In this document: piece by piece, positions 1 through 10,682 of the stretch | Numbering within the stretch: position 1 is the first letter of the stretch | Layout of the letters: each line of letters opens with the position of its first letter | IMG/VR virus record: IMGVR_UViG_2541047502_000022 | Coordinates: 1 to 10,682 of that record | Source of the DNA: a virus | Lineage: Duplodnaviria; Heunggongvirae; Uroviricota; Caudoviricetes | Direction: 5' to 3' (one strand) | Length of the DNA: 10,682 nt | The notes under the pieces: generated by a model | Told to the model about the DNA's origin: nothing | The model's database searches: none | Seen by the model: only the letters and a program-made list of their open reading frames with translations | Translations under genes and position numbers: made by a program

Positions 1-15
1 GAGTTGGTATTCCAT

Positions 16-66
16 GTTAAGCATCCACAGGCTGGTATCTGCAACCGATTATAACGGATGCTTAAC
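16..66. repeat. 11-bp perfect inverted repeat GTTAAGCATCC / GGATGCTTAAC with 29-bp spacer, function unknown
   Basis: Arms at 16-26 and 56-66 are exact reverse complements. No U-tract follows. Lies upstream of int near the presumed left boundary of the element. Confidence 0.45.
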
Positions 67-218
67 GTAATGCGTGAAGTATGGACATATTTTATCAATT
101 AGTGTTTTTTGTCGTTTCATAATGTTTCAGATTGTTCATTATATTTTTGATTATAAACAGATTTGTGATTTTCCTTGTTCCAGCTTGTTTCACGTTGTAG
201 CCCTTTGTGCAACGATCG

Positions 219-242
219 GTGTAGTTAATGGTGTAGTTAATT
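219..242. repeat. Tandem direct repeat GTGTAGTTAAT(G/T) x2 immediately upstream of the integrase start
   Basis: GTGTAGTTAATG at 219-230 and GTGTAGTTAATT at 231-242, 11 of 12 identical and head to tail. The position suggests a protein-binding site or int promoter element. Confidence 0.45.
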
Positions 243-263
243 GTGATGACCGGAATCAAAATT

Positions 264-1493
264 ATGAGCAGAGCACTTAACAAACTGAGCGATACACAGC
301 TGAGGAAAATCAACGGCACACCCGCCCAAAAAACAGCCTTTCTTAATGACGGTGGAAACCTGAGCGTCAGGCATTCAACCAGTGGCCTTTTAACCTGGTA
401 TTTCACTTACAGGGCCGGAACGGGAAGGGGGGCACCACCGGAACGCATTAAGCTGGGAAATTATCCTGATCTGAGCCTGAAATCAGCCAGGGAAAAAGCC
501 GCCCAGTGTCGCGCATGGCTGGCAGAGGGGAAAAATCCACGTCATGAGCTTAATTACACCGTACAGGAAGCGTTAAAGCCGGTAACGGTTGGCGATGCGC
601 TCACCTACTGGCTTGAGTCGTACGCAAAGGAAAACCGCGTGGATTATGCCGCCCTGAAAAAGCGCCTTAATAATCACGTAATACAGCACATTGGTGCTAT
701 GCCGCTGGATAAATGCGAGCTACGGCACTGGCTGGCCTGTTTTGACCAGGTGGCAAAGCGAACGCCTGTTACTGCCGGATTCTTGCTACAGACGTGCAAA
801 CAGGCGCTTAAGTTCTGCCGGAGGCGGCGCTATGCAATCAGCAACGTTCTTGATGATATGAGTGTGGCGGACGTTGGGAAAAAACCGGATATAAGCGAGC
901 GTGTCTTAAGCACCAAAGAACTGGGCGAATTATTGCAGGCACTGGACAAAAAAATATTCTCCCCCTACTACATCGCGTTAATCCGCCTCCTGATTGTGTT
1001 CGGATGCCGGACGGTAGAACTGAGGTTATCGGAGATCAGCGAGTGGGATTTTACCGAAATGCTCTGGACCGTTCCGAAGGAGCACAGCAAAACGAAGGTA
1101 GCCATATTCCGGCCTATACCGGAAGCAATACTGCCGTTCATCACGCAGCTGGTGGAGCAGAACAGGCACACGGGCTTATTGCTGGGGGAAGTGAAACAGG
1201 AGGCCAGCGTATCGCAGTATGGAAGATTAGCGCACAGGAGGCTTAATCACCCTCACTGGTCACTGCATGACATCCGGCGCACCTTTACAACCATGCTGAA
1301 CGATTTAGGCGTTGATCCGCATGTCGTGGAGCAGCTTACAGGCCACCAGATGCCAGGAATGCAGCGAGTTTATAATCATTCCCGTTATCTGGATGCGAAA
1401 CGCAATGCGCTGGATATGTGGACGGAGCGGTTAGGGATACTGGCGGGAACACATGAAAACGTAACCACGCTACCAGTAGCCAGAAGAAAATAA
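264..1493 (+). CDS. int: Tyrosine site-specific integrase, P4-like
   Basis: ORF 243-1493. The C-terminal catalytic region has HDIRRTF (H-x-x-R) and YNHSRYL (catalytic Tyr); the N-terminus (KLSDTQLRK...NDGGNLSV) resembles the arm-binding region of P4-type integrases. ATG at 264 gives the usual N-terminal length; GTG 243 and ATG 246 are alternatives. Confidence 0.9.
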   Translation: MSRALNKLSDTQLRKINGTPAQKTAFLNDGGNLSVRHSTSGLLTWYFTYRAGTGRGAPPERIKLGNYPDLSLKSAREKAAQCRAWLAEGKNPRHELNYTVQEALKPVTVGDALTYWLESYAKENRVDYAALKKRLNNHVIQHIGAMPLDKCELRHWLACFDQVAKRTPVTAGFLLQTCKQALKFCRRRRYAISNVLDDMSVADVGKKPDISERVLSTKELGELLQALDKKIFSPYYIALIRLLIVFGCRTVELRLSEISEWDFTEMLWTVPKEHSKTKVAIFRPIPEAILPFITQLVEQNRHTGLLLGEVKQEASVSQYGRLAHRRLNHPHWSLHDIRRTFTTMLNDLGVDPHVVEQLTGHQMPGMQRVYNHSRYLDAKRNALDMWTERLGILAGTHENVTTLPVARRK

Positions 1494-1511
1494 TTTTTTT
1501 CGTGTTTTTTC

Positions 1512-1525
1512 AGTATGCGCATACT
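1512..1525. promoter_or_regulatory. Perfect 14-bp palindrome AGTATGCGCATACT, candidate operator
   Basis: Exact self-complementary 14-mer 19 bp after the int stop codon, in the int-alpA intergenic region. Confidence 0.35.
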
Positions 1526-1546
1526 GGATATGCGAACAGATACAAC

Positions 1547-1586
1547 GTGCAACAATGAGCAACAATGTGGAACAACTACGAACAAG
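1547..1586. repeat. Four helically phased imperfect repeats (GCAACAATG / GCAACAATG / GGAACAACT / CGAACAAGA)
   Basis: Roughly 10-bp periodicity of an N-G-N-AACAA core in the int-alpA intergenic region; candidate binding-site array for integrase arm, IHF or a regulator. Confidence 0.3.
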
Positions 1587-1857
1587 AGGCGAAAAAGCGT
1601 ACGGATTTATAAGTAGCTGATTTTTAATGTGTTACTGGTTTTTTATACACTAGCGAATCACTCTTTAAAGAGCGAGAAAAAAGGCATGGAACAATATTTT
1701 ATGCCTTTGTATTAACATGAATTTAAAAGATTTTATTCTTACTTTTTCATTTTCTGTAAATCATACATCCTCAGTATTTGCCATTCATCACTCTAGCGGG
1801 AACAATACGACACAATAAGACACCTGATGACTCTTTAAGAAACGAAAGGGGGCAATA

Positions 1858-2046
1858 GTGTTAAGCACTGATCGGTTTATACGTGAAAAAGAATGCGAAA
1901 AACTAACCGGCCTTAGCCGTACGTGTCGCTACCGCCTGGAAAAGGCCGGACAATTCCCATCACGTCGTAAACTTGGCGGTCGTTCCGTTGGCTGGTCTTT
2001 ATCCGAGGTTCTGGCCTGGAAGGATAGCTGCAAGGCAGTTCATTAA
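1858..2046 (+). CDS. alpA: AlpA-family transcriptional regulator / excisionase-like protein
   Basis: 62-aa protein with GTG start preceded by AAGGGGG 7 nt upstream. Sequence (CEKLTGLSRTCRYRLEKAGQFPSRRKLGGRSVGWSLSEVLAW) fits the AlpA/MerR-like small HTH family. Sits immediately downstream of int, as in P4-like islands and PICIs. Confidence 0.85.
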   Translation: MLSTDRFIREKECEKLTGLSRTCRYRLEKAGQFPSRRKLGGRSVGWSLSEVLAWKDSCKAVH

Positions 2047-2192
2047 TCACGCTGGCGGCACACAGCCGCCACACATCAATCATCTGAACACAGAGCTATA
2101 ACCATGAAGATTGAATATACGCCAGAACGTGGGCGGGGATTCGTTCGCCCTGGTGAGACTGGAAAACCACAAAATTGGGGTTTTTCAGGCAT

Positions 2193-2226
2193 AAAAAAAG
2201 CGGCCCCGAAATGGAGCCGCCTTTCT
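2193..2226 (-). terminator. Intrinsic terminator for the minus-strand RHH operon
   Basis: On the minus strand, GCGGC (2220-2216), an 11-nt loop, GCCGC (2204-2200), then seven U (2199-2193). The stem can extend by G-U and A-U pairs. Confidence 0.45.
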
Positions 2227-2315
2227 GAACAGATAACCCGCTGCGCCTTATGTGTATATGATCCCAAACATAAGCACGGGGATGATAGCCGCTATCAGGC
2301 TGGTGGGCAATGCTA

Positions 2316-2504
2316 TCAGTCTGGTTCAGTTCGTTGCCATACCTGCAATGGGCGCGTTTCCCTGTACTCTTTAAGGAATTGCTCAAGGGCAAAAGCACAT
2401 GGCGCGAATCTTTCTGATTCATGCTCTATCTTTCTGCGCCGTCTTTTCCGTGCCGGTGATAATGTTTTGGTCAATTCTTTATCGGTCATTGTGTTGTCCT
2501 GCAT
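2316..2504 (-). CDS. Hypothetical small basic protein, second gene of the minus-strand RHH operon
   Basis: 62-aa ORF in the same frame and strand as the RHH gene, starting 43 nt after its stop and lying before the minus-strand terminator. Contains a basic patch RKRRRRK. Weak RBS; alternative start at the internal Met (2489). Confidence 0.25.
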   Translation of the reverse strand: MQDNTMTDKELTKTLSPARKRRRRKIEHESERFAPCAFALEQFLKEYRETRPLQVWQRTEPD

Positions 2505-2546
2505 AGCAATGCGCCGTAATACCTCACACCACGGCGCTGATAGTTT

Positions 2547-2720
2547 TTATCCTTTGGGTTCTATGCCGCGTTGCTGTAATTCTTTGCGGAGAACGCGTTT
2601 AATCCAAGTGGCTAAAGATGTGTCGCCATCGGCCTTAGCAGCTTCTTCTAGCTGCGCTCTGAAGTCTTCCGGTAATCGCATTTGGTATGGAGGCGAACGT
2701 TTTTCTAATGGTGTTGACAT
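2547..2720 (-). CDS. Ribbon-helix-helix (Arc/CopG-type) DNA-binding protein, candidate repressor of the island
   Basis: 57-aa ORF found by hand translation of the minus strand: MSTPLEKRSPPYQMRLPEDFRAQLEEAAKADGDTSLATWIKRVLRKELQQRGIEPKG. The MRLPEDFRAQLEEAAKADG...S..A.I motif is the hallmark beta-strand plus helix A of Arc-like RHH proteins. Divergent from the plus-strand operon, with palindromic sites over its own start. Confidence 0.7.
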   Translation of the reverse strand: MSTPLEKRSPPYQMRLPEDFRAQLEEAAKADGDTSLATWIKRVLRKELQQRGIEPKG

Positions 2721-2762
2721 GGTAATTACCCTTTATTGCTATACCTACATGGTAATTACCAT
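2717..2762. promoter_or_regulatory. Paired palindromic operator candidates (ACATGGTAATTACC x2, core GGTAATTACC)
   Basis: The 14-bp direct repeat occurs at 2717-2730 and 2747-2760, each with the perfect 10-bp palindrome GGTAATTACC; the second extends to a perfect 14-bp palindrome ATGGTAATTACCAT (2749-2762). Centres are 30 bp apart. The first overlaps the RHH start codon and RBS. Confidence 0.5.
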
Positions 2763-2787
2763 TGTACTTGCCATTACACAAAAATCA

Positions 2788-2821
2788 ACGCCCCGCAGTG
2801 CTGGGAACACATACGGGGCGT
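2788..2821. other. 8-bp perfect stem hairpin (ACGCCCCG / CGGGGCGT) with 18-nt loop in the divergent control region
   Basis: Arms at 2788-2795 and 2814-2821 are exact reverse complements. On the minus strand it is followed by TGATTTTTG, so it may insulate the RHH promoter from upstream minus-strand transcription. Confidence 0.35.
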
Positions 2822-2850
2822 CTAACCAACAACGTAAACTAGGAGCCGTT

Positions 2851-3048
2851 ATGGTTGCCGTAAATCATATACCACACCTTGTACACACACAAACGGCCTT
2901 TGTGTGGCGTTTTCTGGCACTGAGTGCCGGAGAATCTCAAATCATCCACGTAACCGCCTGGACGGAACGCGAAGCGCGTAACCGTTGCCCGTCCGGTTGT
3001 GTTGCTGTATTTGCCGCCCGTATTCGTCAGGAGGTGCGCCATGATTAA
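2851..3048 (+). CDS. Icd-like small protein (putative host cell division inhibitor family), first gene of the plus-strand operon
   Basis: 65 aa; ATG 2851 preceded by AGGAG (2841-2845). The motif FVWRFLAL...TEREAR...VFAARI matches my recollection of the Icd-like family common in P4-like islands; assignment is from memory and unverified. Its stop overlaps the next start. Confidence 0.5.
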   Translation: MVAVNHIPHLVHTQTAFVWRFLALSAGESQIIHVTAWTEREARNRCPSGCVAVFAARIRQEVRHD

Positions 3049-3253
3049 TCTGTCACTTACTGACCTTAACCGCATTCAGTTTCGTGAGAAATTCACAGGG
3101 CAGCTACTGGTCAATGTGGATAAAGGTCGCGTGGTGTGTAATTACCACTTACCAGATGAAGCAATTGTCGCCACAAGGGAATCATTACAGGAAATCACAA
3201 AACGTGCCGGAATGATTAACACGAATATTCAGGGGATGCTTTATGCACAATAA
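3041..3253 (+). CDS. Hypothetical protein (70 aa)
   Basis: ATG 3041 with a strong RBS AGGAGG (3029-3034). Overlaps the upstream gene stop and the downstream start (ATGCACAATAA). No recognisable motif. Confidence 0.6.
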   Translation: MINLSLTDLNRIQFREKFTGQLLVNVDKGRVVCNYHLPDEAIVATRESLQEITKRAGMINTNIQGMLYAQ

Positions 3254-3707
3254 AACCACACCGGACGCAGCCGCCGAAGCCATCAAAACGCTGATGCACG
3301 CGCTGATTGATATTTCTGTTATCGCGGACAGGGCACATAAGCACGCCACCAGCGAAACAGAATATGCCGGTGCTTTCGTTCCTCACTCACTGGCTGTCAT
3401 GCAATTTAGTGCTGATACGGCGCTGAATGAGGCCAAAGCTATCCTGATTGCTGATTGTGAAAATGGGGGGGTTATGCGTGATGATCGTTTTAATTCCCTG
3501 AAACAGGAATTTTCCGGCGTTCCTGATGATGCGGCTGATGCGCTTTCGTCAATGCCAGAACTTATTAGAGCGGCTTTTTTCTTACTTTCCACGAGAGAAT
3601 ATAAATCAACGGGGCTTGATGTACTGAATATCGCCGCCGATTATGCGGAATATGTGGCAGAGGCGCGTTATAGAAGAAAATTTCCTGAGGATGTAAGCCA
3701 TGCGTGA
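3243..3707 (+). CDS. Hypothetical protein (154 aa)
   Basis: ATG overlaps the previous stop (translational coupling). Acidic, helix-rich composition; no motif recognised. Confidence 0.65.
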   Translation: MHNKTTPDAAAEAIKTLMHALIDISVIADRAHKHATSETEYAGAFVPHSLAVMQFSADTALNEAKAILIADCENGGVMRDDRFNSLKQEFSGVPDDAADALSSMPELIRAAFFLLSTREYKSTGLDVLNIAADYAEYVAEARYRRKFPEDVSHA

Positions 3708-3933
3708 TATTTACCACCAAACAATAGACCGCGCATTTCTTGCACTTTCTCACAGTGAAAACATGATGGAAATATTGCGCATATGGCTTGAAACACTTGG
3801 CGACAATGAACGCGACAAACAAAAATCAAGAATTGCCACGGCATTAATAACGCTTCTTGAGCCTGTAATAATGGAACTGCAAGAAATAGATCTATTGCAC
3901 GACAGATATAAAGAACAGCACACCGGAGAATAA
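3700..3933 (+). CDS. Hypothetical protein (77 aa)
   Basis: ATG 3700 overlaps the previous stop (ATGCGTGA). No motif recognised. Confidence 0.6.
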   Translation: MRDIYHQTIDRAFLALSHSENMMEILRIWLETLGDNERDKQKSRIATALITLLEPVIMELQEIDLLHDRYKEQHTGE

Positions 3934-3938
3934 AAATA

Positions 3939-4238
3939 ATGAAACTTAAATATTCTGGCTTAACTGCCAGTGGCAACACTCACCCTAAATTTACGCGCGG
4001 TGATATTTACCGCGACCAGTACGGCGGCACGGTAATGATTAAGGGCGTGGAAGAACGGCGCGTAACCTACCGCCGTGAAGGTTACGAATATGATTGCGTG
4101 ATGCCTGTTTATCAGTTCCGGCGTGATTTTTCTCTGGTACAGACCGCGCCGCATAACGTGCCCACCAGCAACGCCAGGGCACGGGCAAACATCCAGAAGC
4201 TGAAAACCATGGTTAACGGATTCAGGGGCAAGAAATGA
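3939..4238 (+). CDS. Hypothetical protein (99 aa)
   Basis: RBS GGAGA 7 nt upstream; its stop overlaps the helicase start (ATGA). No confident motif. Confidence 0.6.
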   Translation: MKLKYSGLTASGNTHPKFTRGDIYRDQYGGTVMIKGVEERRVTYRREGYEYDCVMPVYQFRRDFSLVQTAPHNVPTSNARARANIQKLKTMVNGFRGKK

Positions 4239-5635
4239 AAAGCGCACCGAACTTAAAAAAACAGCCTTACGACAAGATGACCGAAGTCATTATTTTTGCG
4301 GGTAGTGATGCCTGGGCACATGCGAAACAGTGGCAGGAACAGGACGGGCGACTGGCTGGCGATAATGTGCCTCCCGTTGTGCTGGCTGATGATCAACTGG
4401 ATGAACTGGCAGAACTGAGAATCATCGACGAGGGGCGCTATTGTGTCCGGCTGTACAAGGCAGGCCACATCAGGCCATCAAATATTAATGCCATTGCGCA
4501 CAAGCTGGCGGCGGCGGGTGTAACTGATGCGAATTATTACCCCGAAGGGATGCACAGCCATATGCGGGAGAACTGGCGCGAATACCTGGAACGGGTGCGC
4601 GGGAAAGAGCCGGCGGAAGAAAAAAACCACCAGCGAAAAACCACGCTACCGATGAGCGTTGGATCTACCGGATACGACACGCAACTGGATTACGTGGTTA
4701 AGGGGATTATTCCGGCGGTATCGCTATGCAGCATATACGGGGCTAGCGGGTCCTATAAATCATTCCTTGCCGGATCGTGGGCGTGCCATGTTGCCACTGG
4801 TCGCCAGTGGGGAGGCCGCAGGGTTGCACATGGTGCGGTTCTCTATGTGGTTGGTGAAGGCGGTATAGGTGTTCCGCGTCGTGTAAAAGCCTGGGAGGTT
4901 GTGCACGATGAGCAGGTGAAAAATCTGTATCTGGTAAACCGCCCCATCTTTCCGGCTGCCCCGCTTGATGTTGATGAAATGGTTATCGCTGCCCGTCAGG
5001 TGGAGCGGGAAACGGGTAAACCTGTACGCATGATTATTCTGGATACGCTGGCGCGTTGCTTTGGTGGGAATGATGAAAATGATTCCCGTGATATGGGGGC
5101 GTTTATCCGTGGTTGTGACGAACTGAAACGACGCACAGGGGCCACGGTGCTGGTGGTTCACCATTCCGGCAAGGATGAGACGAAAGGCGCGCGCGGTTCC
5201 AGTGCATTTCGTGCTTCGCTGGATGCTGAATACCGGATACGCAGGGAGGACGCAGGAAGCGAAGCGCTGGTTATCTCATGCACCAAAATGAAGGACGCGG
5301 AGGAACTCAAAGAAGCCGCATATGACTTACGCGTGGTGGAGCTTTTTACCGACGCTGACGGTGAATTAATCACGTTGCTGGTGGTGGTGGATGATCCGCG
5401 CCCTCCTGTTGAACTGGAGCGCATCGAGGAGGCAGGGAACAAGACGGAAAACCATACCGCGCTATGGGGGTGCATCCGTTCACGCACACAGAACGGCGAC
5501 AAGTGCACGATCCCGCTGTTACGTGATGACATGAAAAAGCTGGGGTATGAAATGAAAAACTTCCGGCGCTGGCTGTACAAGCTGGAAAAAGATGGGGTTA
5601 TTCGTATCGATGGGGATGATGTAGCGCCGCTATAA
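4235..5635 (+). CDS. Replicative helicase-like ATPase (RepA / AAA_25 RecA-fold family), candidate island replication initiator
   Basis: 466 aa. P-loop YGASGSYKSFLAGSWACHVATG (Walker A), hydrophobic stretch plus Asp MIILDTLARCF (Walker B), and VVHHSGKD, typical of RepA-like hexameric helicases. The N-terminal ~140 aa are uncharacterised. An iteron cluster follows immediately. Confidence 0.8.
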   Translation: MKSAPNLKKQPYDKMTEVIIFAGSDAWAHAKQWQEQDGRLAGDNVPPVVLADDQLDELAELRIIDEGRYCVRLYKAGHIRPSNINAIAHKLAAAGVTDANYYPEGMHSHMRENWREYLERVRGKEPAEEKNHQRKTTLPMSVGSTGYDTQLDYVVKGIIPAVSLCSIYGASGSYKSFLAGSWACHVATGRQWGGRRVAHGAVLYVVGEGGIGVPRRVKAWEVVHDEQVKNLYLVNRPIFPAAPLDVDEMVIAARQVERETGKPVRMIILDTLARCFGGNDENDSRDMGAFIRGCDELKRRTGATVLVVHHSGKDETKGARGSSAFRASLDAEYRIRREDAGSEALVISCTKMKDAEELKEAAYDLRVVELFTDADGELITLLVVVDDPRPPVELERIEEAGNKTENHTALWGCIRSRTQNGDKCTIPLLRDDMKKLGYEMKNFRRWLYKLEKDGVIRIDGDDVAPL

Positions 5636-5826
5636 AAGTGAGGAGCAAAAGCGAGGGGGATAGAAAGAGGGCCAAAATTAGCCCGCTCTCCCTCACTTTT
5701 CGACCTGTATACATCCTCAAAAGTGAGGGGTAAAAAAATACTTATGAAACACACACATAGAAAAACCGAAAATCCCAACTGCGACGAAGTGAGACGCTTG
5801 AAAAAGTGAGGCGAAAAAGTGAGAGG
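5633..5826. repeat. Iteron cluster, candidate origin of replication
   Basis: Six copies of the core AAGTGAG: 5633-5642 (+), 5689-5699 (inverted, CCCTCACTTTT), 5718-5729 (+), 5787-5794 (+), 5801-5813 (+), 5814-5826 (+), flanking an A-rich segment. Placement directly after the helicase gene matches PICI ori architecture. Confidence 0.5.
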
Positions 5827-5835
5827 TTGCGAGAA

Positions 5836-6087
5836 ATGACCCAAAAACGCAGAGACAGAACAGAGCCAAAATATAAAGCGTTAGACATGACTGAGCACAC
5901 CTTAAAGGTGGCAATCAGAACGATAGACCGCCACACGCGGGAAGGATACGCGAAGGAACATCCCGACCTGATAAGCGCATTCATGACCACGGCGGCGGCA
6001 AACTTTGCCACGCTGACAGAACGGGAGATTGCCGAAGCGGAACAGGTAACAACCATCAACGTTAAAACCGGAGAGGTGGAATTATGA
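5836..6087 (+). CDS. Hypothetical protein (83 aa)
   Basis: ORF 5806-6087. ATG 5836 is preferred (RBS GAGAGG 5821-5826); GTG 5806 lies inside the iterons. Its stop overlaps the ssb start (ATGA). Confidence 0.5.
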   Translation: MTQKRRDRTEPKYKALDMTEHTLKVAIRTIDRHTREGYAKEHPDLISAFMTTAAANFATLTEREIAEAEQVTTINVKTGEVEL

Positions 6088-6494
6088 CGGCACAGATAGC
6101 CGCTTACGGGCGGCTGGTGGACGACCCGCAGGTAAAACAGACCAGCAAGGGCACACCGATGACGCTGGCGCGTATGGCGGTATCTTTGCCATGCAGCCAG
6201 GCACAGGACGGACAGGCGACGTTATGGTTATCGGTCATCGCATTTGGCAAACAGGCCGGCTTCCTGGCTAAACATCAAAAAGGCGATGTTGCCAGCGTAT
6301 CCGGCACGATGCAGGTAAGCCAGTGGACCGGACAGAACGGAGAAACGCGGCAGGGCTGGCAGGTTATCGCAGACAGCGTAATCAGTGCCCGCGCGGCACG
6401 TCCAGGCGGGAACAGACGCAAAACCACAGGCACACAGGGTAATCAGCCACCAGCGGGAGGCGATGACCCTTACGGTGATGATATTTCGTTCTGA
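6084..6494 (+). CDS. ssb: Single-stranded DNA-binding protein
   Basis: 136 aa. OB-fold pattern (AAYGRLVDDPQVKQTSKGTPMTLARMAVSL...LWLSVIAFGKQAGFLAKHQKGDVASVSG...QWTGQNGETRQGWQVIAD), a Gly/Pro/Gln-rich linker, and an acidic C-terminal tip DDPYGDDISF like the SSB tail. Confidence 0.8.
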   Translation: MTAQIAAYGRLVDDPQVKQTSKGTPMTLARMAVSLPCSQAQDGQATLWLSVIAFGKQAGFLAKHQKGDVASVSGTMQVSQWTGQNGETRQGWQVIADSVISARAARPGGNRRKTTGTQGNQPPAGGDDPYGDDISF

Positions 6495-6504
6495 GGGGGT
6501 GACG

Positions 6505-6777
6505 ATGGTACATGACCGCATAGCGGAGGAACTGGAGGCGAAAGGCTTTTACCGGAGGGCGGCGGCGCGATGGGGTGAAGTCATGCAGCTGGTGGAGACA
6601 GACAAGGAACGGCATCACATCACGATGCGACGGCTGGAATGTTCAAGGAAGGCACAGAGGGCACCGGAGCCGCCGGATAATTTCGGAGACCTGAAAAAGG
6701 CAGTCGATCGCACTTATGCCGAAATGGGTATAGATGGTGCTGGTGATGAAATATGGCGCAATTACCAGGACAGCTAA
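6505..6777 (+). CDS. PerC-like transcriptional regulator (putative)
   Basis: ORF 6385-6777; likely start ATG 6505 with RBS GAGGGGG. The N-terminal motif AEELEAKGFYRRAAARWGEVM resembles the PerC/Pch family as I recall it; unverified. Confidence 0.55.
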   Translation: MVHDRIAEELEAKGFYRRAAARWGEVMQLVETDKERHHITMRRLECSRKAQRAPEPPDNFGDLKKAVDRTYAEMGIDGAGDEIWRNYQDS

Positions 6778-6782
6778 TCAAA

Positions 6783-6807
6783 CAGCCGGAGAAATCCGGC
6801 TTTTTTT
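6783..6807 (+). terminator. Rho-independent terminator
   Basis: GCCGGA, GAAA tetraloop, TCCGGC, then seven T (16-mer GCCGGAGAAATCCGGC at 6785-6800). Confidence 0.7.
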
Positions 6808-6903
6808 GCACCAGTTGAAACGGTATGGCGCATTACCGGGTTTTCGTCACGGTCAGGCATAGTTACTATCTGAAACAAACAGACACAACAGAGGAAAAAA
6901 ACA

Positions 6904-7128
6904 ATGCCGATGAAATTTGATGAGATATTAAAACAGCGTGATAAATACCATGCTGACAACATGGAGACGATGAGCATCAATGATTACCGCGCATTCCTGG
7001 AGACGGGCGCACTGATTGAAAAGGATCAGCATGGTTTTGTGAGATGTGCTCTATCCGGTGAAATGCTGGCGGTAAATCCTGAACAGATAGATGCATTGAT
7101 AGAATTTCTGAAAGAGATCAGAGACTGA
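6904..7128 (+). CDS. Hypothetical protein (74 aa)
   Basis: RBS GAGGA upstream of ATG 6904; followed by two tandem terminators. No motif recognised. Confidence 0.6.
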   Translation: MPMKFDEILKQRDKYHADNMETMSINDYRAFLETGALIEKDQHGFVRCALSGEMLAVNPEQIDALIEFLKEIRD

Positions 7129-7147
7129 GCCAGCACACAGCACACAT

Positions 7148-7170
7148 AGCCGGAGCAATCCGGCTTTTTT
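7148..7170 (+). terminator. Rho-independent terminator, second copy of the same hairpin
   Basis: AGCCGGA, GCAA loop, TCCGGCT, then six T. Same stem as at 6785 and 9422, one change in the loop. Confidence 0.7.
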
Positions 7171-7182
7171 GCGCCCAAAAAA

Positions 7183-7218
7183 AGCCCGATAAGGTCAGAG
7201 GGTTCTTATCGGGCTTTT
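7183..7218. terminator. Bidirectional terminator-like hairpin (11-bp perfect stem)
   Basis: AGCCCGATAAG (7183-7193), 11-nt loop, CTTATCGGGCT (7205-7215), flanked by a 7-A run upstream and TTTT downstream. Confidence 0.6.
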
Positions 7219-7295
7219 GCATATGAGGTTTTTGGATGCACTGGCGTTCGTGATCGGGATAATCATTTCATAATTTGCAACATAACTCAATATCA

Positions 7296-7323
7296 TTGCA
7301 TAAAATGCAATTCTGATTATAAT
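7296..7323 (+). promoter_or_regulatory. Candidate sigma70 promoter of the capsid operon
   Basis: TTGCAT (7296-7301), 16-nt spacer, perfect TATAAT (7318-7323). The -35 lies within the short palindrome TTGCATaaaATGCAA. Confidence 0.4.
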
Positions 7324-7352
7324 CATAACTGGATAAACATCCAGTTATGATT
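7321..7352. promoter_or_regulatory. 13-bp perfect inverted repeat, candidate operator of the capsid operon
   Basis: AATCATAACTGGA (7321-7333) and TCCAGTTATGATT (7340-7352) with a 6-bp spacer, overlapping the -10 and transcription start region. Confidence 0.5.
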
Positions 7353-7379
7353 TTTTTAGTCGAAGAGGAATTTCTTACT

Positions 7380-7586
7380 ATGGCTGAAGAGAAAAAAAGC
7401 GGTGTTTCGGTGTACATAAGCCCCGAAATCGTGGAGGTGCTCAAGCAGCGCCACAAAAAAAACTATGAAGCTGGCGTTGCGGCTGGACTGGATCCGCTGA
7501 TGACGCCGGAGCCGTCGATAGGTTCACTTGTACGCTCTTATTTACTTGCGGCGCTTGGGATGCATAAAAATTATGGGGGTGAATAA
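7380..7586 (+). CDS. Hypothetical small protein (68 aa), possibly RHH-like, first gene of the capsid operon
   Basis: ATG 7380 with RBS AAGAGGA (7363-7369); ORF-track start 7347 lies inside the operator palindrome. GVSVYISPEIVEVLKQRHKK suggests a beta-strand followed by a helix. Its stop overlaps the capsid gene start (TAATG). Confidence 0.55.
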   Translation: MAEEKKSGVSVYISPEIVEVLKQRHKKNYEAGVAAGLDPLMTPEPSIGSLVRSYLLAALGMHKNYGGE

Positions 7587-8641
7587 TGGCAGGCAAAGCA
7601 ACGGCACTTAACACTAACCAGCTTTTCATGTACCTGAATCGCGGGGATATTGCGGATTTTAAATTCAGCCCTCTGTTTACCACGCTGTTTTTCCCGAACG
7701 TGGCGACATTCAGCACGCAAAACATCATGCTGGATACCCTGGACATTGAAGAAGTCACCATGTCGGCGTTTTGTTCGCCTATGGTGGGTAGCCAGGTTCA
7801 GCGCGATAAAGGGTACGAAACCAGCACAATCAAACCTGGCTACATGAAGCCAAAGCACGAAATCGATCCAACGAAAACCATCATGCGCATGGCTGGAGAA
7901 GATCCGGCACAGCTTAACGACCCTACCTATCGCCGTATGCGCCTGATTACTGGCAACATGCGCCGCCAGATAAACGCCATTAAGGCACGCGTGGAATGGC
8001 TGGCGGTGAATGCGGTAACGACCGGAAAAAACATCATTGAGGGCGAAGGCATAGAACGCTATGAAATCGACTGGAAAATACCGGAAAACTGCATCATAGA
8101 GCAGGCCAAGGGTAAAAAATGGTCCGAGCAGGATAAAGACATGCACGACCCAATCTATGACATCGAGCTTTATGCTGATCAGGCTGGTTGCCCCGCAAAC
8201 GTCATGATTATGGGCGCTGAGGTATGGCGCACATTACGCAGCTTTAAAAAATTCCGTGAGCTGTACGATCTTTCCCGTGGTTCAGAATCCGCCGCCGAAC
8301 TGGCCTGTAAAAACCTGGGCGAAGTGGTGAGCTTTAAAGGCTATCTTGGTGATCTGGCCCTTATCGTCTATTCCGGCAAATACACTGACAGCGATGGTAC
8401 CGAAAAATATTTCCTTGAGCCTGATTTGCTGGTCCTGGGTAACACCAACAATAAAGGGCTGGTGGCCTATGGTGCGATAATGGATCAGGAAGCGGTAAGA
8501 ACGGGCGCAACACAAAACATGTTTTACCCGAAAAACTGGATTGAGGACGGCGATCCGGCGATTGAGTACGTGCAGACACACAGTGCACCGCAGCCGGTAC
8601 CGGCAGATATTCGCAAATTTGTTACCGTCAAAATTGGTTAA
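7586..8641 (+). CDS. Major capsid protein, lambda gpE-like
   Basis: 351 aa. Shared with remembered lambda gpE (341 aa): PGYMKPKHE, YRRMRLI, SFKKFRELYDLSRGSESAAELACKNLGEVVSFKGYLGDLALIVYSGKY, VLGNTN, YPKNWIEDGDPA and the C-terminal VTVKI. RBS GGGGTG upstream. Confidence 0.9.
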   Translation: MAGKATALNTNQLFMYLNRGDIADFKFSPLFTTLFFPNVATFSTQNIMLDTLDIEEVTMSAFCSPMVGSQVQRDKGYETSTIKPGYMKPKHEIDPTKTIMRMAGEDPAQLNDPTYRRMRLITGNMRRQINAIKARVEWLAVNAVTTGKNIIEGEGIERYEIDWKIPENCIIEQAKGKKWSEQDKDMHDPIYDIELYADQAGCPANVMIMGAEVWRTLRSFKKFRELYDLSRGSESAAELACKNLGEVVSFKGYLGDLALIVYSGKYTDSDGTEKYFLEPDLLVLGNTNNKGLVAYGAIMDQEAVRTGATQNMFYPKNWIEDGDPAIEYVQTHSAPQPVPADIRKFVTVKIG

Positions 8642-8653
8642 CGGGGGGATTCT

Positions 8654-8989
8654 ATGGACACTCCATACATTGAGTTATTTGCAGGCAGTCAGCAGGTATC
8701 CACGACGTTGGTACATTTTGCCGCTGATGCTGGCGTTATTCAGGAATTTACCCCGCTGATGCTGGCAGACAATGGCGAGTTTAAGCCGTGGGATGGTCAG
8801 GAATCTGGCAAGGCTGTTTATCTGACCTCGTACCCTGTGGACACGTCAAAGCAGAAATCAGCACAGTGTTACAAGACGGGGATATTCAATATTGCCGCCG
8901 TTAACTGGCCTGAGAGCGTCGACACCGATGCGAAAAAATGCGCCGCCTTTGCGGGTTCCGGCGTATCCGTTCAGCCGCTGGCCCGATAA
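8654..8989 (+). CDS. Head decoration protein, lambda gpD-like
   Basis: 111 aa. Shared with remembered lambda gpD (110 aa): TPLMLA, WDG, YKTGIF, WPE, AAFAGSG. RBS GGGGGG upstream. Confidence 0.85.
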   Translation: MDTPYIELFAGSQQVSTTLVHFAADAGVIQEFTPLMLADNGEFKPWDGQESGKAVYLTSYPVDTSKQKSAQCYKTGIFNIAAVNWPESVDTDAKKCAAFAGSGVSVQPLAR

Positions 8990-9001
8990 GCAGGGGGAAC
9001 G

Positions 9002-9415
9002 ATGGCAACGAATGAAAGCATCATGACGCTACCGCTGGCGAGTAAATTTAAAGTCGAAGCGCGGGCAATGGCTGACAGAGGTTTATCAACCTATGAGGCC
9101 GTATATCAACTAAACAAACTGGAAGAGCAGGACAAGCCGTGCGCTGATGCGATTATGGCGCTTCATGAGCATAAAGACTATCAGCCGCTGTTGCGTGCAA
9201 TGGCAAACGTGCCTTGTATCGATGTTGGTACGGCTAAAAGCATCCTTAGCATGACCATAGAGCAGGAACGTCCGAAGGTTGCGCCGGAACTTACCGCAGC
9301 CTTTGAAAACTTTATGGACATGCACAGCCCGCAAGCCGTATCAGCTGGCATGGCATACGATGGCAGAAACCAGGGCGATGACGGCGACATCGATCGCATA
9401 CTGAAAACCATCTGA
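9002..9415 (+). CDS. Hypothetical protein (137 aa) between the decoration gene and cos
   Basis: RBS AGGGGGAA upstream, followed by a terminator. No motif recognised. Confidence 0.65.
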   Translation: MATNESIMTLPLASKFKVEARAMADRGLSTYEAVYQLNKLEEQDKPCADAIMALHEHKDYQPLLRAMANVPCIDVGTAKSILSMTIEQERPKVAPELTAAFENFMDMHSPQAVSAGMAYDGRNQGDDGDIDRILKTI

Positions 9416-9419
9416 GACA

Positions 9420-9443
9420 AGGCCGGAGAAATCCGGCTTTTTT
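9420..9443 (+). terminator. Rho-independent terminator, third copy of the GCCGGAGAAATCCGGC hairpin
   Basis: GGCCGGA, GAAA loop, TCCGGC, then six T. The 16-mer at 9422-9437 is identical to that at 6785-6800. Confidence 0.7.
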
Positions 9444-9620
9444 ACGGGTCCTTCCTGGAATTATGGCCCGTTACGGGGCGGCGACCTCGCGGATTTTCGC
9501 TATTTATGAGCCTTTTCAGGGTGGTGGTGGTGGTTTTGTTGTTTGATCTATCTTTATGAATGAAAAGGGAAAGATGCAAGCAATACACCAACCTGAAGCA
9601 GTAATTAAGTTGGTGTATTA
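9444..9620 (+). other. Lambda-type cos site (cosQ-like, cosN, divergent cosB)
   Basis: 9444-9500 reads ACGGGTCCTT...GTTACG GGGCGGCGACCT CGCGGATTTTCGCTATTTATGAG. The 12-mer at 9476-9487 is identical to the lambda cohesive end as I remember it, and both flanks are near-identical to the lambda right end and left end. Downstream (9500-9620) diverges from lambda cosB and carries a (GGT)4 run (9519-9533) and an 11-bp inverted repeat AATACACCAAC / GTTGGTGTATT (9584-9594 / 9609-9619) abutting the Nu1-like start. Confidence 0.75.
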
Positions 9621-10163
9621 ATGAAATCTCATCTGATGAACAAAAAAAACATGGCGAAAAGCTGCCGTGTAAGTGCGACAGCGTTCGACAAGTGGGGAGT
9701 AACTCCCGTTGAGCGTAAAGGCCGTGAGGCGTTTTATGATGTTGCCAGCGTGATAGAAAATAGGGTTAACAATGCAATTAGCCAGCTTATAAACGACAAA
9801 GGCGAGATTGACGATGATGAACTTTTACGAGTCAGGATCAGATTACTGACAGCACAGGCAGAGGCGCAGGAACTTAAAAACGATCGCGATCGCGGTGACG
9901 TGATTGATACTGAGTTTTGCCTGTACGCGCTTTCAAAGCTGGCGAGTCAGATTTCATCAATCATGGACAGCCTCCCGCTTACTATGCAAAGGAGCTTCCC
10001 ACAGATTACCCCCGCCATGCTGGACAGGCTTAAAAGGGAAGTGGTTAAAGCCTGTAATGCCAGTGCCAGAGTTGCCGACAACCTCCCACAGATACTGGCT
10101 GATTACTTGAAAGAAACAACCGGAAACGTACCGGAAAAGTTGCTACAGAAGAAAGGCGAGTAA
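9621..10163 (+). CDS. Terminase small subunit, lambda Nu1-like
   Basis: 180 aa. The C-terminal two-thirds align with remembered lambda Nu1 (LTAQAEAQELKNDRDRGDVIDTEFCLYALSKLASQISSIMDSLPLTMQRSFPQI...LKREVVKACN versus lambda RLTRAQADAQELKNARDSAEVVETAFCTFVLSRIAGEIASILDGLPLSVQRRFPEL...LKRDIIKAMN). The N-terminal DNA-binding region is divergent. Alternative start ATG 9636. No terminase large-subunit gene follows. Confidence 0.85.
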   Translation: MKSHLMNKKNMAKSCRVSATAFDKWGVTPVERKGREAFYDVASVIENRVNNAISQLINDKGEIDDDELLRVRIRLLTAQAEAQELKNDRDRGDVIDTEFCLYALSKLASQISSIMDSLPLTMQRSFPQITPAMLDRLKREVVKACNASARVADNLPQILADYLKETTGNVPEKLLQKKGE

Positions 10164-10191
10164 CAGACGCGCAATTATTGAACAAAAATGA

Positions 10192-10253
10192 GAAAGGATC
10201 TGATAATGGCATTTTCTGGCTAAAATGCCTCGTGTCAGATCCTTTCTTTTTTT
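10192..10253 (+). terminator. Compound stem-loop with U-tract after the Nu1-like gene
   Basis: Outer stem GAAAGGATCTGA (10192-10203) with TCAGATCCTTTC (10235-10246), enclosing inner hairpin GGCATTTT / AAAATGCC (10208-10215 / 10222-10229), then seven T (10247-10253). Confidence 0.6.
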
Positions 10254-10272
10254 AATATTTTCATTGTTAAAC

Positions 10273-10682
10273 GTAAGCGTACAGCGAGGGCCGTATTGAC
10301 GGGGATGTGTTATTCAGCTGGCAGTGCTATGCGCCACGGAAGCAGTTCGCTGACCCGGTTGACCGGCCAGTCTGCTATGACGCCAAGCACATGGCGAAGG
10401 TAGCTTTCTGGATCCACGTCATTCAGTTTGCACGTCCCGATCAGGCTGTACAGTAGCGCTCCCCGCTCACCACCATGATCAGAGCCGAAGAACAGGAAGT
10501 TTTTACGACCCAGACTGACCGCCCGCAGGGCATTTTCAGCGATGTTGTTGTCGATTTCCACCCAGCCATCGTTCGCATAGTACGTCAGTGCCGGCCACTG
10601 GTTAAGTGCGTACGCGAACGCCTTCGCCAACTCTGAGTGTCGCGACAGGGTCTTCATCTTTTCACGCAACCAGCTTTCCAGG
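10273..10682 (-). mobile_element. IS66-family insertion sequence, partial (one end plus transposase 3' region), continues beyond the window
   Basis: GTAAGCG at 10273-10279 resembles IS66-family termini, and the adjacent minus-strand ORF encodes an IS66 TnpC C-terminus. The element runs off the window edge. Confidence 0.65.
10310..10682 (-). CDS. IS66-family transposase, C-terminal part (5' end lies outside the window)
   Basis: The translation [75 protein letters not shown] matches the conserved IS66 TnpC C-terminus. The reading frame stays open to the window edge upstream of the ORF-track Met at 10669. Confidence 0.8.

Follow-up and report, generated by a model that had tools for sequence, protein, structure and literature searches.

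The stretch of DNA analysed here (the window, 10,682 nt) raises the question whether an island combining satellite genes with lambda-type head genes, a cos site and a small terminase represents a new kind of phage satellite that encodes its own capsid shell. We assign the window, with a probability of roughly 0.88, to the classical ('Type A') Gram-negative PICIs of the EcCICFT073 group, as the allele catalogued as EcCIRM12579, located at the roxA(ycfD)-phoQ site, carrying an IS66 near its right end and packaged in a helper-dependent manner with its own Nu1-type TerS. What was directly observed is the identity of the element, its boundaries and gene content, and that portal, protease, TerL and tail genes are absent. 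Positions 1-10272 are 100% identical to many O157:H7 genomes, and the capsid, decoration and TerS accessions of the O157 copy are those of O55:H7 RM12579 at the EcCIRM12579 coordinates. This element was catalogued as a PICI (Fillol-Salom 2018, Table S1); the literature searched contained no experiments on the allele, which is catalogued only. Pfam searches detected all five PICI core components (int, alpA, replicase, capsid gene and terS) and zero forbidden ones in the window, and the int-alpA-replicase-capsid-terS layout is the SatelliteFinder definition of the PICI family (PMC10085698). A major capsid gene is present in 21 of the 29 reference Gram-negative PICIs (PMC10111431). The E. coli phage satellite in the window is therefore real but of a kind already described, and the novelty implied by the sequence-only reading does not hold. 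Added here are the recognition of orf137 as a Nu3-domain homologue, a Nu1-type TerS with its own cosB in place of Rpp, an inverted cos2, and the sharing of the chassis with Sakai.

The island was bounded by comparison with K-12, where the site is empty, and with an O157:H7 copy free of the IS (L001), which is 100% identical over 1-10272; it spans 11.2 kb between roxA and phoQ. The features at its two ends are:

83 to 92, unstranded: attL core GGACATATTT, left island boundary and sole copy within the window
218 to 241, plus strand: two tandem GGTGTAGTTAAT repeats, probable integrase arm-type sites
10273 to 10682, minus strand: end of an IS66-family element (ISEc8-like), outside the satellite proper (Pfam DDE_Tnp_IS66, IS66_C)
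10310 to 10669, minus strand: IS66 transposase C-terminus (Pfam)

In K-12 the roxA-phoQ gap measures 75 bp and both flanks align with a 10-bp overlap; relative to this empty site the 10-bp core GG(G/A)CATATTT is duplicated, one copy at each island end. Defining attL and attR in this way, as had been proposed, thus gave precise boundaries. A second copy of the attL 10-mer marks the right end in IS-free L001 (19293), and the same 10-mer is the att core listed for both EcCICFT073 and EcCIRM12579 (Fillol-Salom 2018, Table S1). A pair resembling the GGTGTAGTTAAT repeats, which probably serve in integrase binding, lies just inside attR (L001 about 19195-19218; direct repeat 185-242). The previously given span of 1-10272 required adjustment at both ends: the island begins at 83 rather than 1, and its right end lies past IS66. 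The match to IS-free O157 copies ends at 10272, with the IS66 terminal GTAAGCG at 10273, and the IS-free island continues for ~0.95 kb to phoQ, comprising the remainder of cos2, a 93-aa ORF and attR. Neither the window nor the IS-free copy through phoQ contained portal, TerL or tail genes, so their reported absence is real and not a window-edge artefact. Without portal, protease, TerL and tails the island must therefore depend on a cos-type lambdoid helper, in agreement with the sequence-only reading.

Islands at roxA-phoQ were first annotated as decayed lambdoid prophage remnants: the EDL933/Sakai allele was termed cryptic prophage CP-933C or Sp7 'untypable', and the island does contain lambda-family E, D, Nu1 and cos sequences. 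As an explanation of the window this is extremely improbable, and it is effectively refuted by the precise boundaries with a duplicated att core at a site common to other PICIs, the same compact architecture at several att sites, genes that are all intact and under purifying selection, and AlpA, RepA/primase and iteron modules that are of PICI type, not lambdoid. No remnants of A, W, B, C, tail or lysis genes were detected, and in the related genomes compared the same genes did not lie within a complete lambdoid prophage.

The left half of the island carries the integration, regulation and replication genes:

264 to 1493, plus strand: tyrosine integrase with P4-type arm-binding domain (Pfam Arm-DNA-bind_3 5.6e-18, Phage_integrase 1.5e-16)
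1858 to 2046, plus strand: AlpA regulator (Pfam Phage_AlpA 5.4e-17)
2316 to 2504, minus strand: 62-aa ORF, 96% identical to an annotated leftward CFT073 gene
2547 to 2720, minus strand: Arc/YlcI-like RHH candidate (PHROG Arc-like repressor 1.5e-6, NCBIfam YlcI_YnfO_N 0.0014, Pfam Arc 0.038)
2851 to 3048, plus strand: Icd-like ORF, first of a rightward overlapping operon (NCBIfam phage_ICD_like 5.2e-18)
3041 to 3253, 3243 to 3707 and 3700 to 3933, plus strand: operon ORFs (PHROG families of unknown function)
3939 to 4238, plus strand: DUF4222 protein, RgdR orthologue (Pfam DUF4222 1.6e-24; RGD at residues 20-22)
4235 to 5635, plus strand: RepA-family (AAA_25) replicative helicase, replication initiator (Pfam 2.5e-43; PHROG helicase/primase families)
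5634 to 5826, unstranded: replication origin with iterons AAAGTGAG(G) in two sets either side of an AT-rich stretch
5836 to 6087, plus strand: orf83 (Pfam/PHROG scans)
6084 to 6494, plus strand: SSB (Pfam)
6505 to 6777, plus strand: PerC-family regulator (Pfam 1.2e-42), 90% identical to Sakai PchE
6784 to 6801 and 7148 to 7165: terminator-like hairpins
6904 to 7128, plus strand: orf74 (Pfam/PHROG scans)

The integrase is 97% identical to EcCICFT073 int and 99.5% to Sakai Sp7 int, and AlpA is 94% identical to its EcCICFT073 counterpart, for which alpA is required for induction and transfer (PMC6092414, Table 1). The RHH protein called by the sequence-only reading at 2547-2720 is kept as a candidate, the matches to Arc-like families being weak. 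At 2316-2720 the O157 RefSeq annotation has a plus-strand Icd-like pseudogene instead of the leftward ORFs. Start and stop codons of adjacent ORFs overlap throughout the operon (2851-3933). The DUF4222 protein shares 81% identity with RgdR (Sakai ECs1581), a regulator characterised as activating LEE/type III secretion (PMC3378721). The helicase resembles the EcCICFT073 (62%) and Sakai (67%) primases over the N-terminal 122 aa only. All five copies of the iteron lie within 5635-5823, against a chance expectation of 0.29 (0/200 shuffles reached 5), and the published architecture of E. coli PICI origins is the same (PMC6092414, Fig. 2 legend).

The gene order given by the sequence-only reading was confirmed, with Pfam matches for int, alpA, the RepA-type helicase, SSB, PerC and the gpE-like, gpD-like and Nu1-like genes, and the proposed PICI-type chassis with a lambdoid E/D module, lambda-type cos and Nu1-type TerS was borne out. 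The claim of an own capsid shell concerns the head operon:

7321 to 7352, plus strand: predicted terminator-like hairpin with a 14-bp stem, directly upstream of the head operon
7380 to 7586, plus strand: orf68, first gene of the head operon (PHROG 3255, unknown function), 66% identical to its EcCICFT073 homologue
7586 to 8641, plus strand: gpE-type major capsid homologue, c1499 orthologue (Pfam Phage_cap_E 5.5e-50)
8654 to 8989, plus strand: gpD-type head decoration homologue, c1500 orthologue (Pfam HDPD, gpD family, 5.1e-18)
9002 to 9415, plus strand: orf137, homologue of the Nu3/gpC scaffold C-terminal domain (PHROG, hhalign)

The gpE-like protein shares 43% identity with lambda gpE and 96.6% with c1499, and no capsid closer than 47% was found among deposited phages; for the gpD-like protein, identity is 36% with lambda gpD and 98% with its EcCICFT073 homologue. 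The earlier statement that a scaffold is lacking is not strictly right, because orf137, between the gpD-like gene and cos, is a Nu3-scaffold-domain homologue. It matched PHROG 53 (head maturation protease, C-terminal part) at 4.7e-9, lambda Nu3 matched orf137's own family PHROG 1999 at 2.7e-26, and hhalign aligned orf137 44-117 with Nu3 119-187 (77% probability, E 2e-5). A distant orf137 homologue (P0041, 195 aa) is encoded directly upstream of D-like and E-like genes. These three genes are conserved under purifying selection, with dN/dS of 0.13-0.23 (gpE-like), 0.06-0.30 (gpD-like) and 0.23-0.63 (orf137).

Joint conservation of coat, decoration and scaffold-domain genes, maintained in two capsid lineages that have diverged deeply (54% identity), together with the distance of the gpE-like protein from any deposited phage capsid, favours a satellite that is partly capsid-forming, packaging the island in a gpE-like/gpD-like/Nu3-domain shell, perhaps smaller, around a helper portal; SaPIbov5 Ccm and PmCI172, which has a capsid homologue and small capsids, are precedents (PMC6092414). 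However, deletion of c1499 or c1500, whose products are 97-98% identical to those of the window, altered neither transfer nor lambda interference of EcCICFT073, the c1499::cat island transferred at 1e5-1e6/ml, and packaged EcCICFT073 DNA was all phage-sized with lambda (PMC6092414). The c1501::tetA island, affected in the orf137 orthologue by gene order, still transfers, and the window island lacks portal and protease. Dispensability and phage-sized DNA therefore argue against the self-built shell of the sequence-only reading, which we consider unlikely. By analogy with EcCICFT073 genetics, the head trio would be accessory and form no self-sufficient shell.

Since transfer with the three helpers tested does not require these conserved genes, they might instead act against phages, poisoning or diverting the capsid assembly of certain helpers or of lambdoid phages that are not helpers, or they might extend the helper range. 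Interference functions are common in satellites, and a scaffold domain in truncated form could compete for the coat protein with Nu3/gpC. Such a role is possible but doubtful: loss of c1499 or c1500 brought no relief of lambda interference, for which Rpp accounts (PMC6739421).

The assignment to helper-dependent PICIs directs attention to the packaging region:

9422 to 9620, plus strand: cos1 (alignment with lambda cos), with terminator hairpin 9422-9437, cosQ GGGTCCT 9446-9452 and cosN GGGCGGCGACCT 9476-9487
9488 to 9620: satellite-specific cosB1, with a (GGT) tract at 9520-9533 and an inverted repeat 9582-9592 / 9609-9619
9621 to 10163, plus strand: full-length Nu1-type small terminase (TerS), 180 aa (Pfam Phage_Nu1 3.2e-23; PHROG 57 8.1e-53)
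10190 to 10272, minus strand: inner half of inverted cos2, with R1' (10190-10203) and R2' (10233-10245) belonging to a phage-type cosB

As the sequence-only reading had proposed, this is a lambda-type cos: cosQ and the 12-nt cosN match lambda exactly, and the flanking sequences align with lambda cos. No repeated R-type elements were obvious in cosB1. TerS sits where EcCICFT073 has rppA. It aligns with lambda Nu1 over 3-180 at 36% identity, the homology extending through the centre and the C-terminus; its best phage match is N15 (44%). TerS and RppA shared zero similarity by BLASTP, and a PDB sequence search yielded no Rpp chain. The dN/dS of terS is 0.12-0.27. The cos1-cosB1-terS cassette is present in 766/5426 complete E. 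coli genomes and is conserved as a unit in PICIs at other att sites, with capsid genes only 54% identical; cosB1 and the TerS DNA-binding domain are kept together in three PICI lineages. Two PICI TerS lineages are 94-96% identical in the N-terminal and middle parts and only 57% in the C-terminal 54 aa, as would be expected of a tail that follows different helper TerLs. This tail is only 22-24% identical to those of lambda-type, 21-type and ST131-prophage TerS, so that any particular TerL partner would be tentative. Alternatively, PICI TerS could behave like Rpp and oligomerise together with helper TerS.

The second, inverted cos had been missed in the sequence-only reading. IS66 lies in the I1-equivalent spacer of cos2, and R3', cosN2 and cosQ2 are found beyond the insertion; L001 18150-18400 aligns along the entire lambda cosQ-cosN-R3-I1-R2-R1. 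The R type CAGATCC(G/T)TTCT also occurs in the cosB of a lambdoid prophage (L011), adjoining Nu1, A, W and portal genes. By sequence, cos2 copies a prophage-type cosB and is split in the window, whose copy may be impaired.

Among known systems, EcCIRM12579 shares att site and core, size, gene order and the accessions given above; it differs in that IS66 in cos2 is a feature of the window copy, and in two small RM12579 ORFs at 3816-4281 that are fused into one 154-aa ORF in O157 copies. EcCICFT073, the prototype Gram-negative cos PICI, has the same roxA-phoQ site, gene order, att core and cosQ/cosN with cos1/inverted-cos2 arrangement, with 89-97% nucleotide identity in most modules, 94% across capsid-decoration-orf137-cos1, and capsid, decoration and orf137 proteins 97%, 98% and 96% identical. 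In contrast, it has a primase-family replication gene with only the N-terminal 125 aa in common, RppA (144 aa), which needs helper TerS, instead of the full-length TerS, a cosB1 diverging from 9518 onward, and phage-21-type rather than CAGATCC-type cos2 R elements. The prototype cf-PICI EcCIEDL933 (Sakai Sp7, OI-51) shares att site, chassis and integrase, the alpA region, RgdR, SSB (97%), PchE/PerC and the last ORF, whereas its right half is a complete HK97-type head/packaging module (capsid, protease, portal, adaptors, TerS, TerL) in which no similarity to the window E/D/Nu3-domain/Nu1 genes could be detected; it builds its own small capsids and steals tails only. SaPIbov5 and other cos SaPIs also carry the helper's cos site, SaPIbov5 additionally a capsid homologue, Ccm (PMC6092414), and in pac SaPIs the satellite TerS redirects helper TerL (PMC6739421). 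However, SaPIs belong to another phylum with unrelated sequences and a TerS of pac, not cos/Nu1, type, and the small-capsid formation driven by Ccm is not seen for E. coli islands. Satellite P4 resembles the island in integrase type and AlpA/Vis-like regulation and, like it, has an Icd-like ORF, replicates autonomously and carries the cos of its helper, but relies on P2 rather than a lambdoid helper type. Pfam and PHROG scans detected no homologues of P4 Sid, Psu, Delta, Epsilon or alpha primase in the window; the earlier 'P4-like' label fits integrase and AlpA only.

For EcCICFT073, int and alpA are essential, pri-rep is important and the cos sites are functional (PMC6092414, PMC6739421). On this model, a cos-type lambdoid helper would activate alpA, AlpA and Int would excise the island, and the RepA-type helicase would fire the iteron origin to generate concatemers; helper TerL would cut the lambda-type cosN, and the DNA would enter helper-made proheads to which helper tails are added. 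From the sequence we propose that the complete Nu1-type TerS stands in for Rpp, its diverged winged-HTH reading the satellite-specific cosB1 beside cos1 and its C-terminal tail recruiting helper TerL. If so, helper TerS should be unneeded, whereas Rpp must borrow it, and an island that uses Rpp requires helper terS (PMC6739421). The inverted cos2 with its prophage-type cosB may permit packaging by the helper's unmodified terminase. Purifying selection on the E/D/Nu3-domain trio implies that these genes matter for something beyond this model.

The first 10,272 nt of the window (1-10272) are 100% identical to many O157:H7 chromosomes. In an IS-free copy (locus L001) the island fills the interval between roxA and phoQ, its end lying about 0.95 kb past window position 10272; this additional stretch contains the remainder of an inverted second cos (cos2), a 93-aa ORF and attR. 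NZ_CP038302.1 3,245,000-3,256,500 is an example of an IS-free locus. As proposed in the sequence-only reading, the att ends were defined by comparison with an empty site: in E. coli K-12, roxA and phoQ are 75 bp apart, and when this site is aligned to the two flanks the alignments overlap by 10 bp, GG(G/A)CATATTT, a core found in duplicate, one copy at either end of the island (window copy 83-92). The empty-site alignment and the duplicated core thus delimit an element of 11.2 kb. In most O157:H7 copies, the 1-10272 region is in addition interrupted at some point by an IS3-family element (+1.3 kb, the match being in two BLAST pieces). The ORF map and Pfam searches agreed with the gene order initially read from the sequence (int, alpA, operon, RepA-like helicase, ori, ssb, PerC-like, gpE/gpD-like, cos, Nu1-like), with the following main features:

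264-1493: P4-type tyrosine integrase (Pfam)
1858-2046: AlpA (Pfam)
2851-5635: rightward overlapping operon ending in an AAA_25 RepA-type helicase
6084-6494: SSB (Pfam)
6505-6777: PerC-family regulator (Pfam)
7586-8641: gpE-family capsid gene (Pfam)
8654-8989: gpD-family decoration gene (Pfam)
9002-9415: orf137, annotated hypothetical, homologue of the Nu3/gpC C-terminal domain (PHROG, profile-profile)
9621-10163: Nu1-family small terminase TerS (Pfam)
10273-10682: IS66 insertion in the I1-equivalent spacer of cos2, with the C-terminal end of the IS66 transposase on the minus strand (Pfam)

Portal, protease, TerL, head-completion, tail and lysis genes were not detected anywhere in the 11.2-kb island by ORF map, Pfam and PHROG searches in which every ORF was accounted for. 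The absence of portal, TerL and tail genes noted in the window therefore extends to the whole element between roxA and phoQ, and the idea of a satellite depending on a lambdoid helper was right in outline, the element having no portal, protease, TerL or tail genes of its own.

The SatelliteFinder definition of a PICI comprises an integrase, an AlpA/MerR/Stl regulator, a primase-replicase, a capsid-morphogenesis gene and a small terminase, and excludes tail, holin, portal and connector genes (PMC10085698). The island has all five core parts: an integrase with Arm-DNA-bind_3 and Phage_integrase domains (Pfam) at one end, the adjoining regulator (Phage_AlpA, 5.4e-17), the AAA_25 RepA helicase (4235-5635) with an iteron origin directly downstream, the capsid gene (Phage_cap_E, 5.5e-50) and the small terminase (Phage_Nu1, 3.2e-23; PHROG 57, 8.1e-53). 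Read against the published definition, it carries none of the forbidden genes, and its 11.2 kb lie within the size range of about 10-15 kb. Five core parts without any forbidden one make this configuration a textbook PICI layout, and 21 of the 29 Gram-negative PICIs used as reference have a major capsid gene (PMC10111431). PICI criteria further include a specific att site that is common to PICIs and unused by prophages (PMC6092414); the roxA-phoQ site with the GGACATATTT core is common to the island, EcCICFT073 and EcCIRM12579. The latter, from O55:H7 strain RM12579, is listed in Table S1 of Fillol-Salom et al. 2018 with 11.2 kb, the location ycfD-phoQ and the att core GGACATATTT (PMC6092414), and in the RefSeq record of this interval the capsid, decoration and TerS protein accessions are those of the window-identical O157 copy. 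The island is hence an already catalogued member of a well-studied PICI family, and the novelty implied by the sequence-only reading does not hold, the allele being on record as EcCIRM12579 (PMC6092414) and the layout being that of the PICI definition (PMC10085698).

The closest studied relative is EcCICFT073, the prototype Gram-negative PICI of uropathogenic strain CFT073, which has the same site and gene order. Most modules are 89-97% identical at the nucleotide level, and the stretch from capsid through decoration and orf137 to cos1 is 94% identical; protein identity is 96.6% for the capsid, 98% for the decoration protein and 96% for orf137. Helper-dependent induction, packaging, high-frequency transfer and interference have been shown only for EcCICFT073 (PMC6092414, PMC6739421) and for the same-site capsid-forming (cf-PICI) allele. 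Identification of the window with O-island 51 / CP-933C / Sakai Sp7, which the literature locates at this site, was considered and discarded, since the Sakai locus (NC_002695.2 1594711-1610171) proved to be the cf-PICI EcCIEDL933, whose right half differs. Common to both are the integrase (99.5%), the alpA region, RgdR (81%), SSB (97%), PchE (90%) and the last ORF, whereas the right half of the Sakai element is made up of a full HK97-type set of head and terminase genes, the head genes having no similarity to those of the window. Portal, head maturation protease, head-tail adaptor/connectors and TerL are all encoded by the Sakai allele and all missing from the island. Excision and packaging experiments on Sp7/OI-51 belong to this other allele and are therefore not evidence for the window island. 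O157:H7 genomes carry either the classical PICI or the cf-PICI EcCIEDL933 at one att site on a nearly identical chassis, which is a natural module swap.

Two further classifications were weighed. The proposed P4-like chassis stands for int, AlpA and an Icd-like ORF, the only P4-type parts of the island; no ORF matches psu-delta-sid, epsilon (ash) or the alpha primase-helicase in Pfam or PHROGs. A defective lambdoid prophage would show remnants of the order A-W-B-C-Nu3-D-E-FI-FII; in the island E, D, Nu3 domain, cos and Nu1 follow one another, with no other late genes. No remnants of the lambdoid series and no tail, lysis or immunity genes were found in or beside the element. The possibility that the same genes lie inside a full lambdoid prophage was likewise looked at and not borne out, the flanks being the core genes roxA and phoQ.

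In the replication module, five AAAGTGAG iterons flank an AT-rich stretch at 5635-5823, with none elsewhere in the window, against an expectation of 0.29; a count of five was not reached in any of 200 shuffles. The replication origin at these iterons is real. No primase domain was detected in the AAA_25 helicase, unlike the EcCICFT073 replication protein. Over its first ~122 residues (4235-4600) the helicase shares 62-67% identity with the N-terminal ends of the EcCICFT073 and Sakai Sp7 proteins, which belong to the primase family and are far longer; the remainder is unrelated. The N-terminal domain is common, and the replication enzyme fused to it differs. Annotations of 2104-2720 conflict: 2104-2697 is called a plus-strand 'Icd-like pseudogene' in O157 and O55 RefSeq, and in the CFT073 counterpart the annotation places two small genes on the minus strand, one of them 96% identical to window 2316-2504 (minus strand). 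Of the divergent RHH switch suggested from the sequence, a minus-strand ORF at 2547-2720 stands, its RHH character reduced to a weak Arc/YlcI-like match. The minus-strand reading of 2104-2720 fits the PICI-recognition hallmark of a divergent regulator pair adjoining int. The 154-aa ORF at 3243-3707 is a single fused frame in O157 copies; RM12579 and CFT073 have in its place two ORFs of 240 and 234 nt, which overlap but are separate.

An RgdR homologue at 3939-4238, passed over in the sequence-only reading, is 81% identical to ECs1581 and retains the RGD motif, and the product of 6505-6777 is a PchE/PerC homologue (90% identity). The RgdR and PchE/PerC families are regulators of LEE/type III secretion in EHEC, and homologues of virulence regulators are thus also aboard the island. 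Hairpins of nearly the same sequence, GCCGGAG(A/C)AATCCGGC with a T run behind it, lie at the ends of three units: perC (6785-6800), orf74 (7149-7164) and the head operon (9422-9437). Directly before the head operon there is another, distinct terminator-like hairpin (7321-7352; stem of 14 bp), which suggests regulated read-through into the head genes. Rfam detected no RNA families in the window, and a promoter scan of the window performed no better than on shuffles.

The sequence-only reading had assigned the island a capsid shell of its own. In EcCICFT073, deletion of c1499 (capsid) or c1500 (decoration) left transfer unchanged and did not relieve lambda interference, an island with c1499 exchanged for cat transferred at 1e5-1e6 per ml, a c1501::tetA-marked island still transferred, and particle DNA was entirely phage-sized (PMC6092414). 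From gene order we infer that c1501 is the orf137 orthologue. As the capsid and decoration genes concerned are 97-98% identical to those of the island, these genetics argue against a necessary self-made shell. Nevertheless, neither gene is in decay, with dN/dS values of 0.13-0.23 (capsid) and 0.06-0.30 (decoration), including comparisons across two PICI capsid lineages that are only 54% identical. Among deposited phage capsids, none exceeded 47% identity to the island capsid.

By profile comparisons, orf137 is homologous to the C-terminal domain of Nu3/gpC, the lambda scaffold. It matches the C-terminal part of PHROG 53 (head-maturation protease) at 4.7e-9, lambda Nu3 matches orf137's own family, PHROG 1999, at 2.7e-26, and profile-profile comparison of orf137 with Nu3 gave 77% probability (E 2e-5). 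The sole distant full-length relative among 1.8 billion representatives, a 195-aa protein (P0041), is encoded directly upstream of D-like and E-like genes, the position of Nu3 in lambda. The island therefore retains coat, decoration and scaffold domain together. Assignments of orf137 as Rpp or gpFI were dismissed: BLASTP matched it to neither RppA nor FI, the Pfam model Packaging_FI did not match, and the PDB sequence search returned noise only. The name 'head-tail connector protein', given by NCBI to some orf137 relatives, is unsupported by any NCBIfam or Pfam model. In the cspD-clpS PICI lineage (L014), which keeps the capsid, decoration and TerS genes, the orf137 slot holds the gene of an unrelated protein of 127 aa (9884-10267, minus strand), a helix-turn-helix regulator by annotation.

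Downstream of the head genes, cosQ (GGGTCCT, 9446-9452) and the 12-nt cohesive end GGGCGGCGACCT (9476-9487) equal lambda base for base, including their flanks, and the site, cos1, is real; it departs from lambda after an I2-like stretch. Homology to EcCICFT073 ends directly after cosN, where cosB and rppA are replaced by a different cosB (cosB1) and the 180-aa TerS, terS occupying exactly the same slot as rppA. In Rpp-type cos PICIs, cos1 is adjoined by Rpp (about 140-155 aa, wHTH and dimerisation helices, no TerL-binding domain); the island has a full-length Nu1 homologue instead. Residues 3-180 of TerS align with lambda Nu1 at 36% identity, spanning the winged-HTH, a well-conserved central part and the C-terminal region, which in lambda Nu1 is TerL-binding. 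BLASTP detected no match of TerS to RppA, and the PDB sequence search yielded noise only, with no Rpp chain at E<=1. The closest phage relative is N15 gp1 (44%). The recognition-helix residues are unlike those of lambda, which fits a different predicted DNA target.

The cos1-cosB1-terS unit is nearly unchanged in the PICI of ATCC 25922, located at another site, and in the cspD-clpS PICI, whose capsid gene is 54% identical, and to judge by these alignments it behaves as a cassette. It is present in 766 of 5426 complete E. coli genomes (about 14%), and the CFT073 rppA allele in 175. Between the TerS lineages of these PICIs, the first 126 residues are 94-96% identical and the last 54 only 57%, a pattern that would be expected if the tail were matched to different helper TerLs; identity of the tail to three phage TerS tails is only 22-24%. 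TerS would bind cosB1 and recruit helper TerL to cosN, and helper TerS would not be needed. EcCICFT073, by contrast, yields <1 transductant with phi80 delta-terS. The 2018 paper merely notes a terS homologue in some PICIs (PMC6092414), and no experimental work on the TerS variant of PICIs was found in the literature searched. Rpp has been proposed by its authors to have evolved from TerS. cosB1 contains a (GGT)4-5 tract at 9520-9533 (bp 45-58 from the cohesive end), and EcCICFT073 cos1 its reverse complement, (CAC)4, at about bp 54-65 (L003 about 13612-13623); the latter falls in the interval to which Murialdo and Feiss reportedly assigned their proposed Rpp-binding R3-PICI. A motif in opposite orientation may be common to the two cosB types.

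Intact copies of the O157 allele carry the inverted cos2 downstream of terS (L001 18150-18400). It aligns with the entire lambda cos including the cosB geometry, with R elements CAGATCC(G/T)(A/T)TCT. In the window it is split, R1' and R2' (10190-10245) lying on the window side and R3', cosN2 and cosQ2 beyond the IS. IS66-family (ISEc8) elements have inserted independently in the packaging module, in the cos2 spacer of the window and inside terS of strain OkiPb01717 (L006 12757-15202). R elements of the CAGATCC type are also present in a lambdoid prophage of ST131-type strains (L011 3490-3660), whose cosB lies directly upstream of Nu1, A, W and portal genes. The cos2 sites of ATCC 25922 (L008 about 3620-3825, minus strand) and CFT073 have phage-21-type CATGTCGG elements, and one PICI lineage (L014) is without cos2. 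A CAGATCC-type cosB was not found in the single resident O157 prophage inspected, whose cosB also has phage-21-type CATGTCGG elements. That the phage-like cosB of cos2 is the target of TerS was considered and rejected, as nearly identical TerS proteins occur with a phage-21-type cos2 (ATCC 25922) or with none and cosB1 stays constant. Since its R types vary or the site is missing, cos2 looks like a cos/cosB borrowed from a helper, a lineage-specific copy and not the partner of the island TerS.

The island type, its att site, the capsid and decoration genes and the cos sites were published in 2018-2019 and the allele is catalogued by name, so that the element itself has no discovery value; the TerS-for-Rpp substitution, the Nu3-domain gene and the apparent cos2 mimicry are modest, testable additions and no new kind of system. 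Taken jointly, they could mean that E. coli cos PICIs have in the TerS cassette a second way of packaging which, unlike Rpp, bypasses helper TerS entirely; that together with the head trio the cassette marks an intermediate of classical and capsid-forming PICIs, with shells built or remodelled under natural helpers other than lambda or phi80; and that the variable cos2, as a copy of helper cosB, serves a second, helper-specific capsid route. We give this combined reading a probability of about one in five. A satellite Nu1-type TerS may be an alternative to Rpp for hijacking lambdoid terminases, and the conserved coat, decoration and scaffold-domain genes are dispensable for laboratory transfer.
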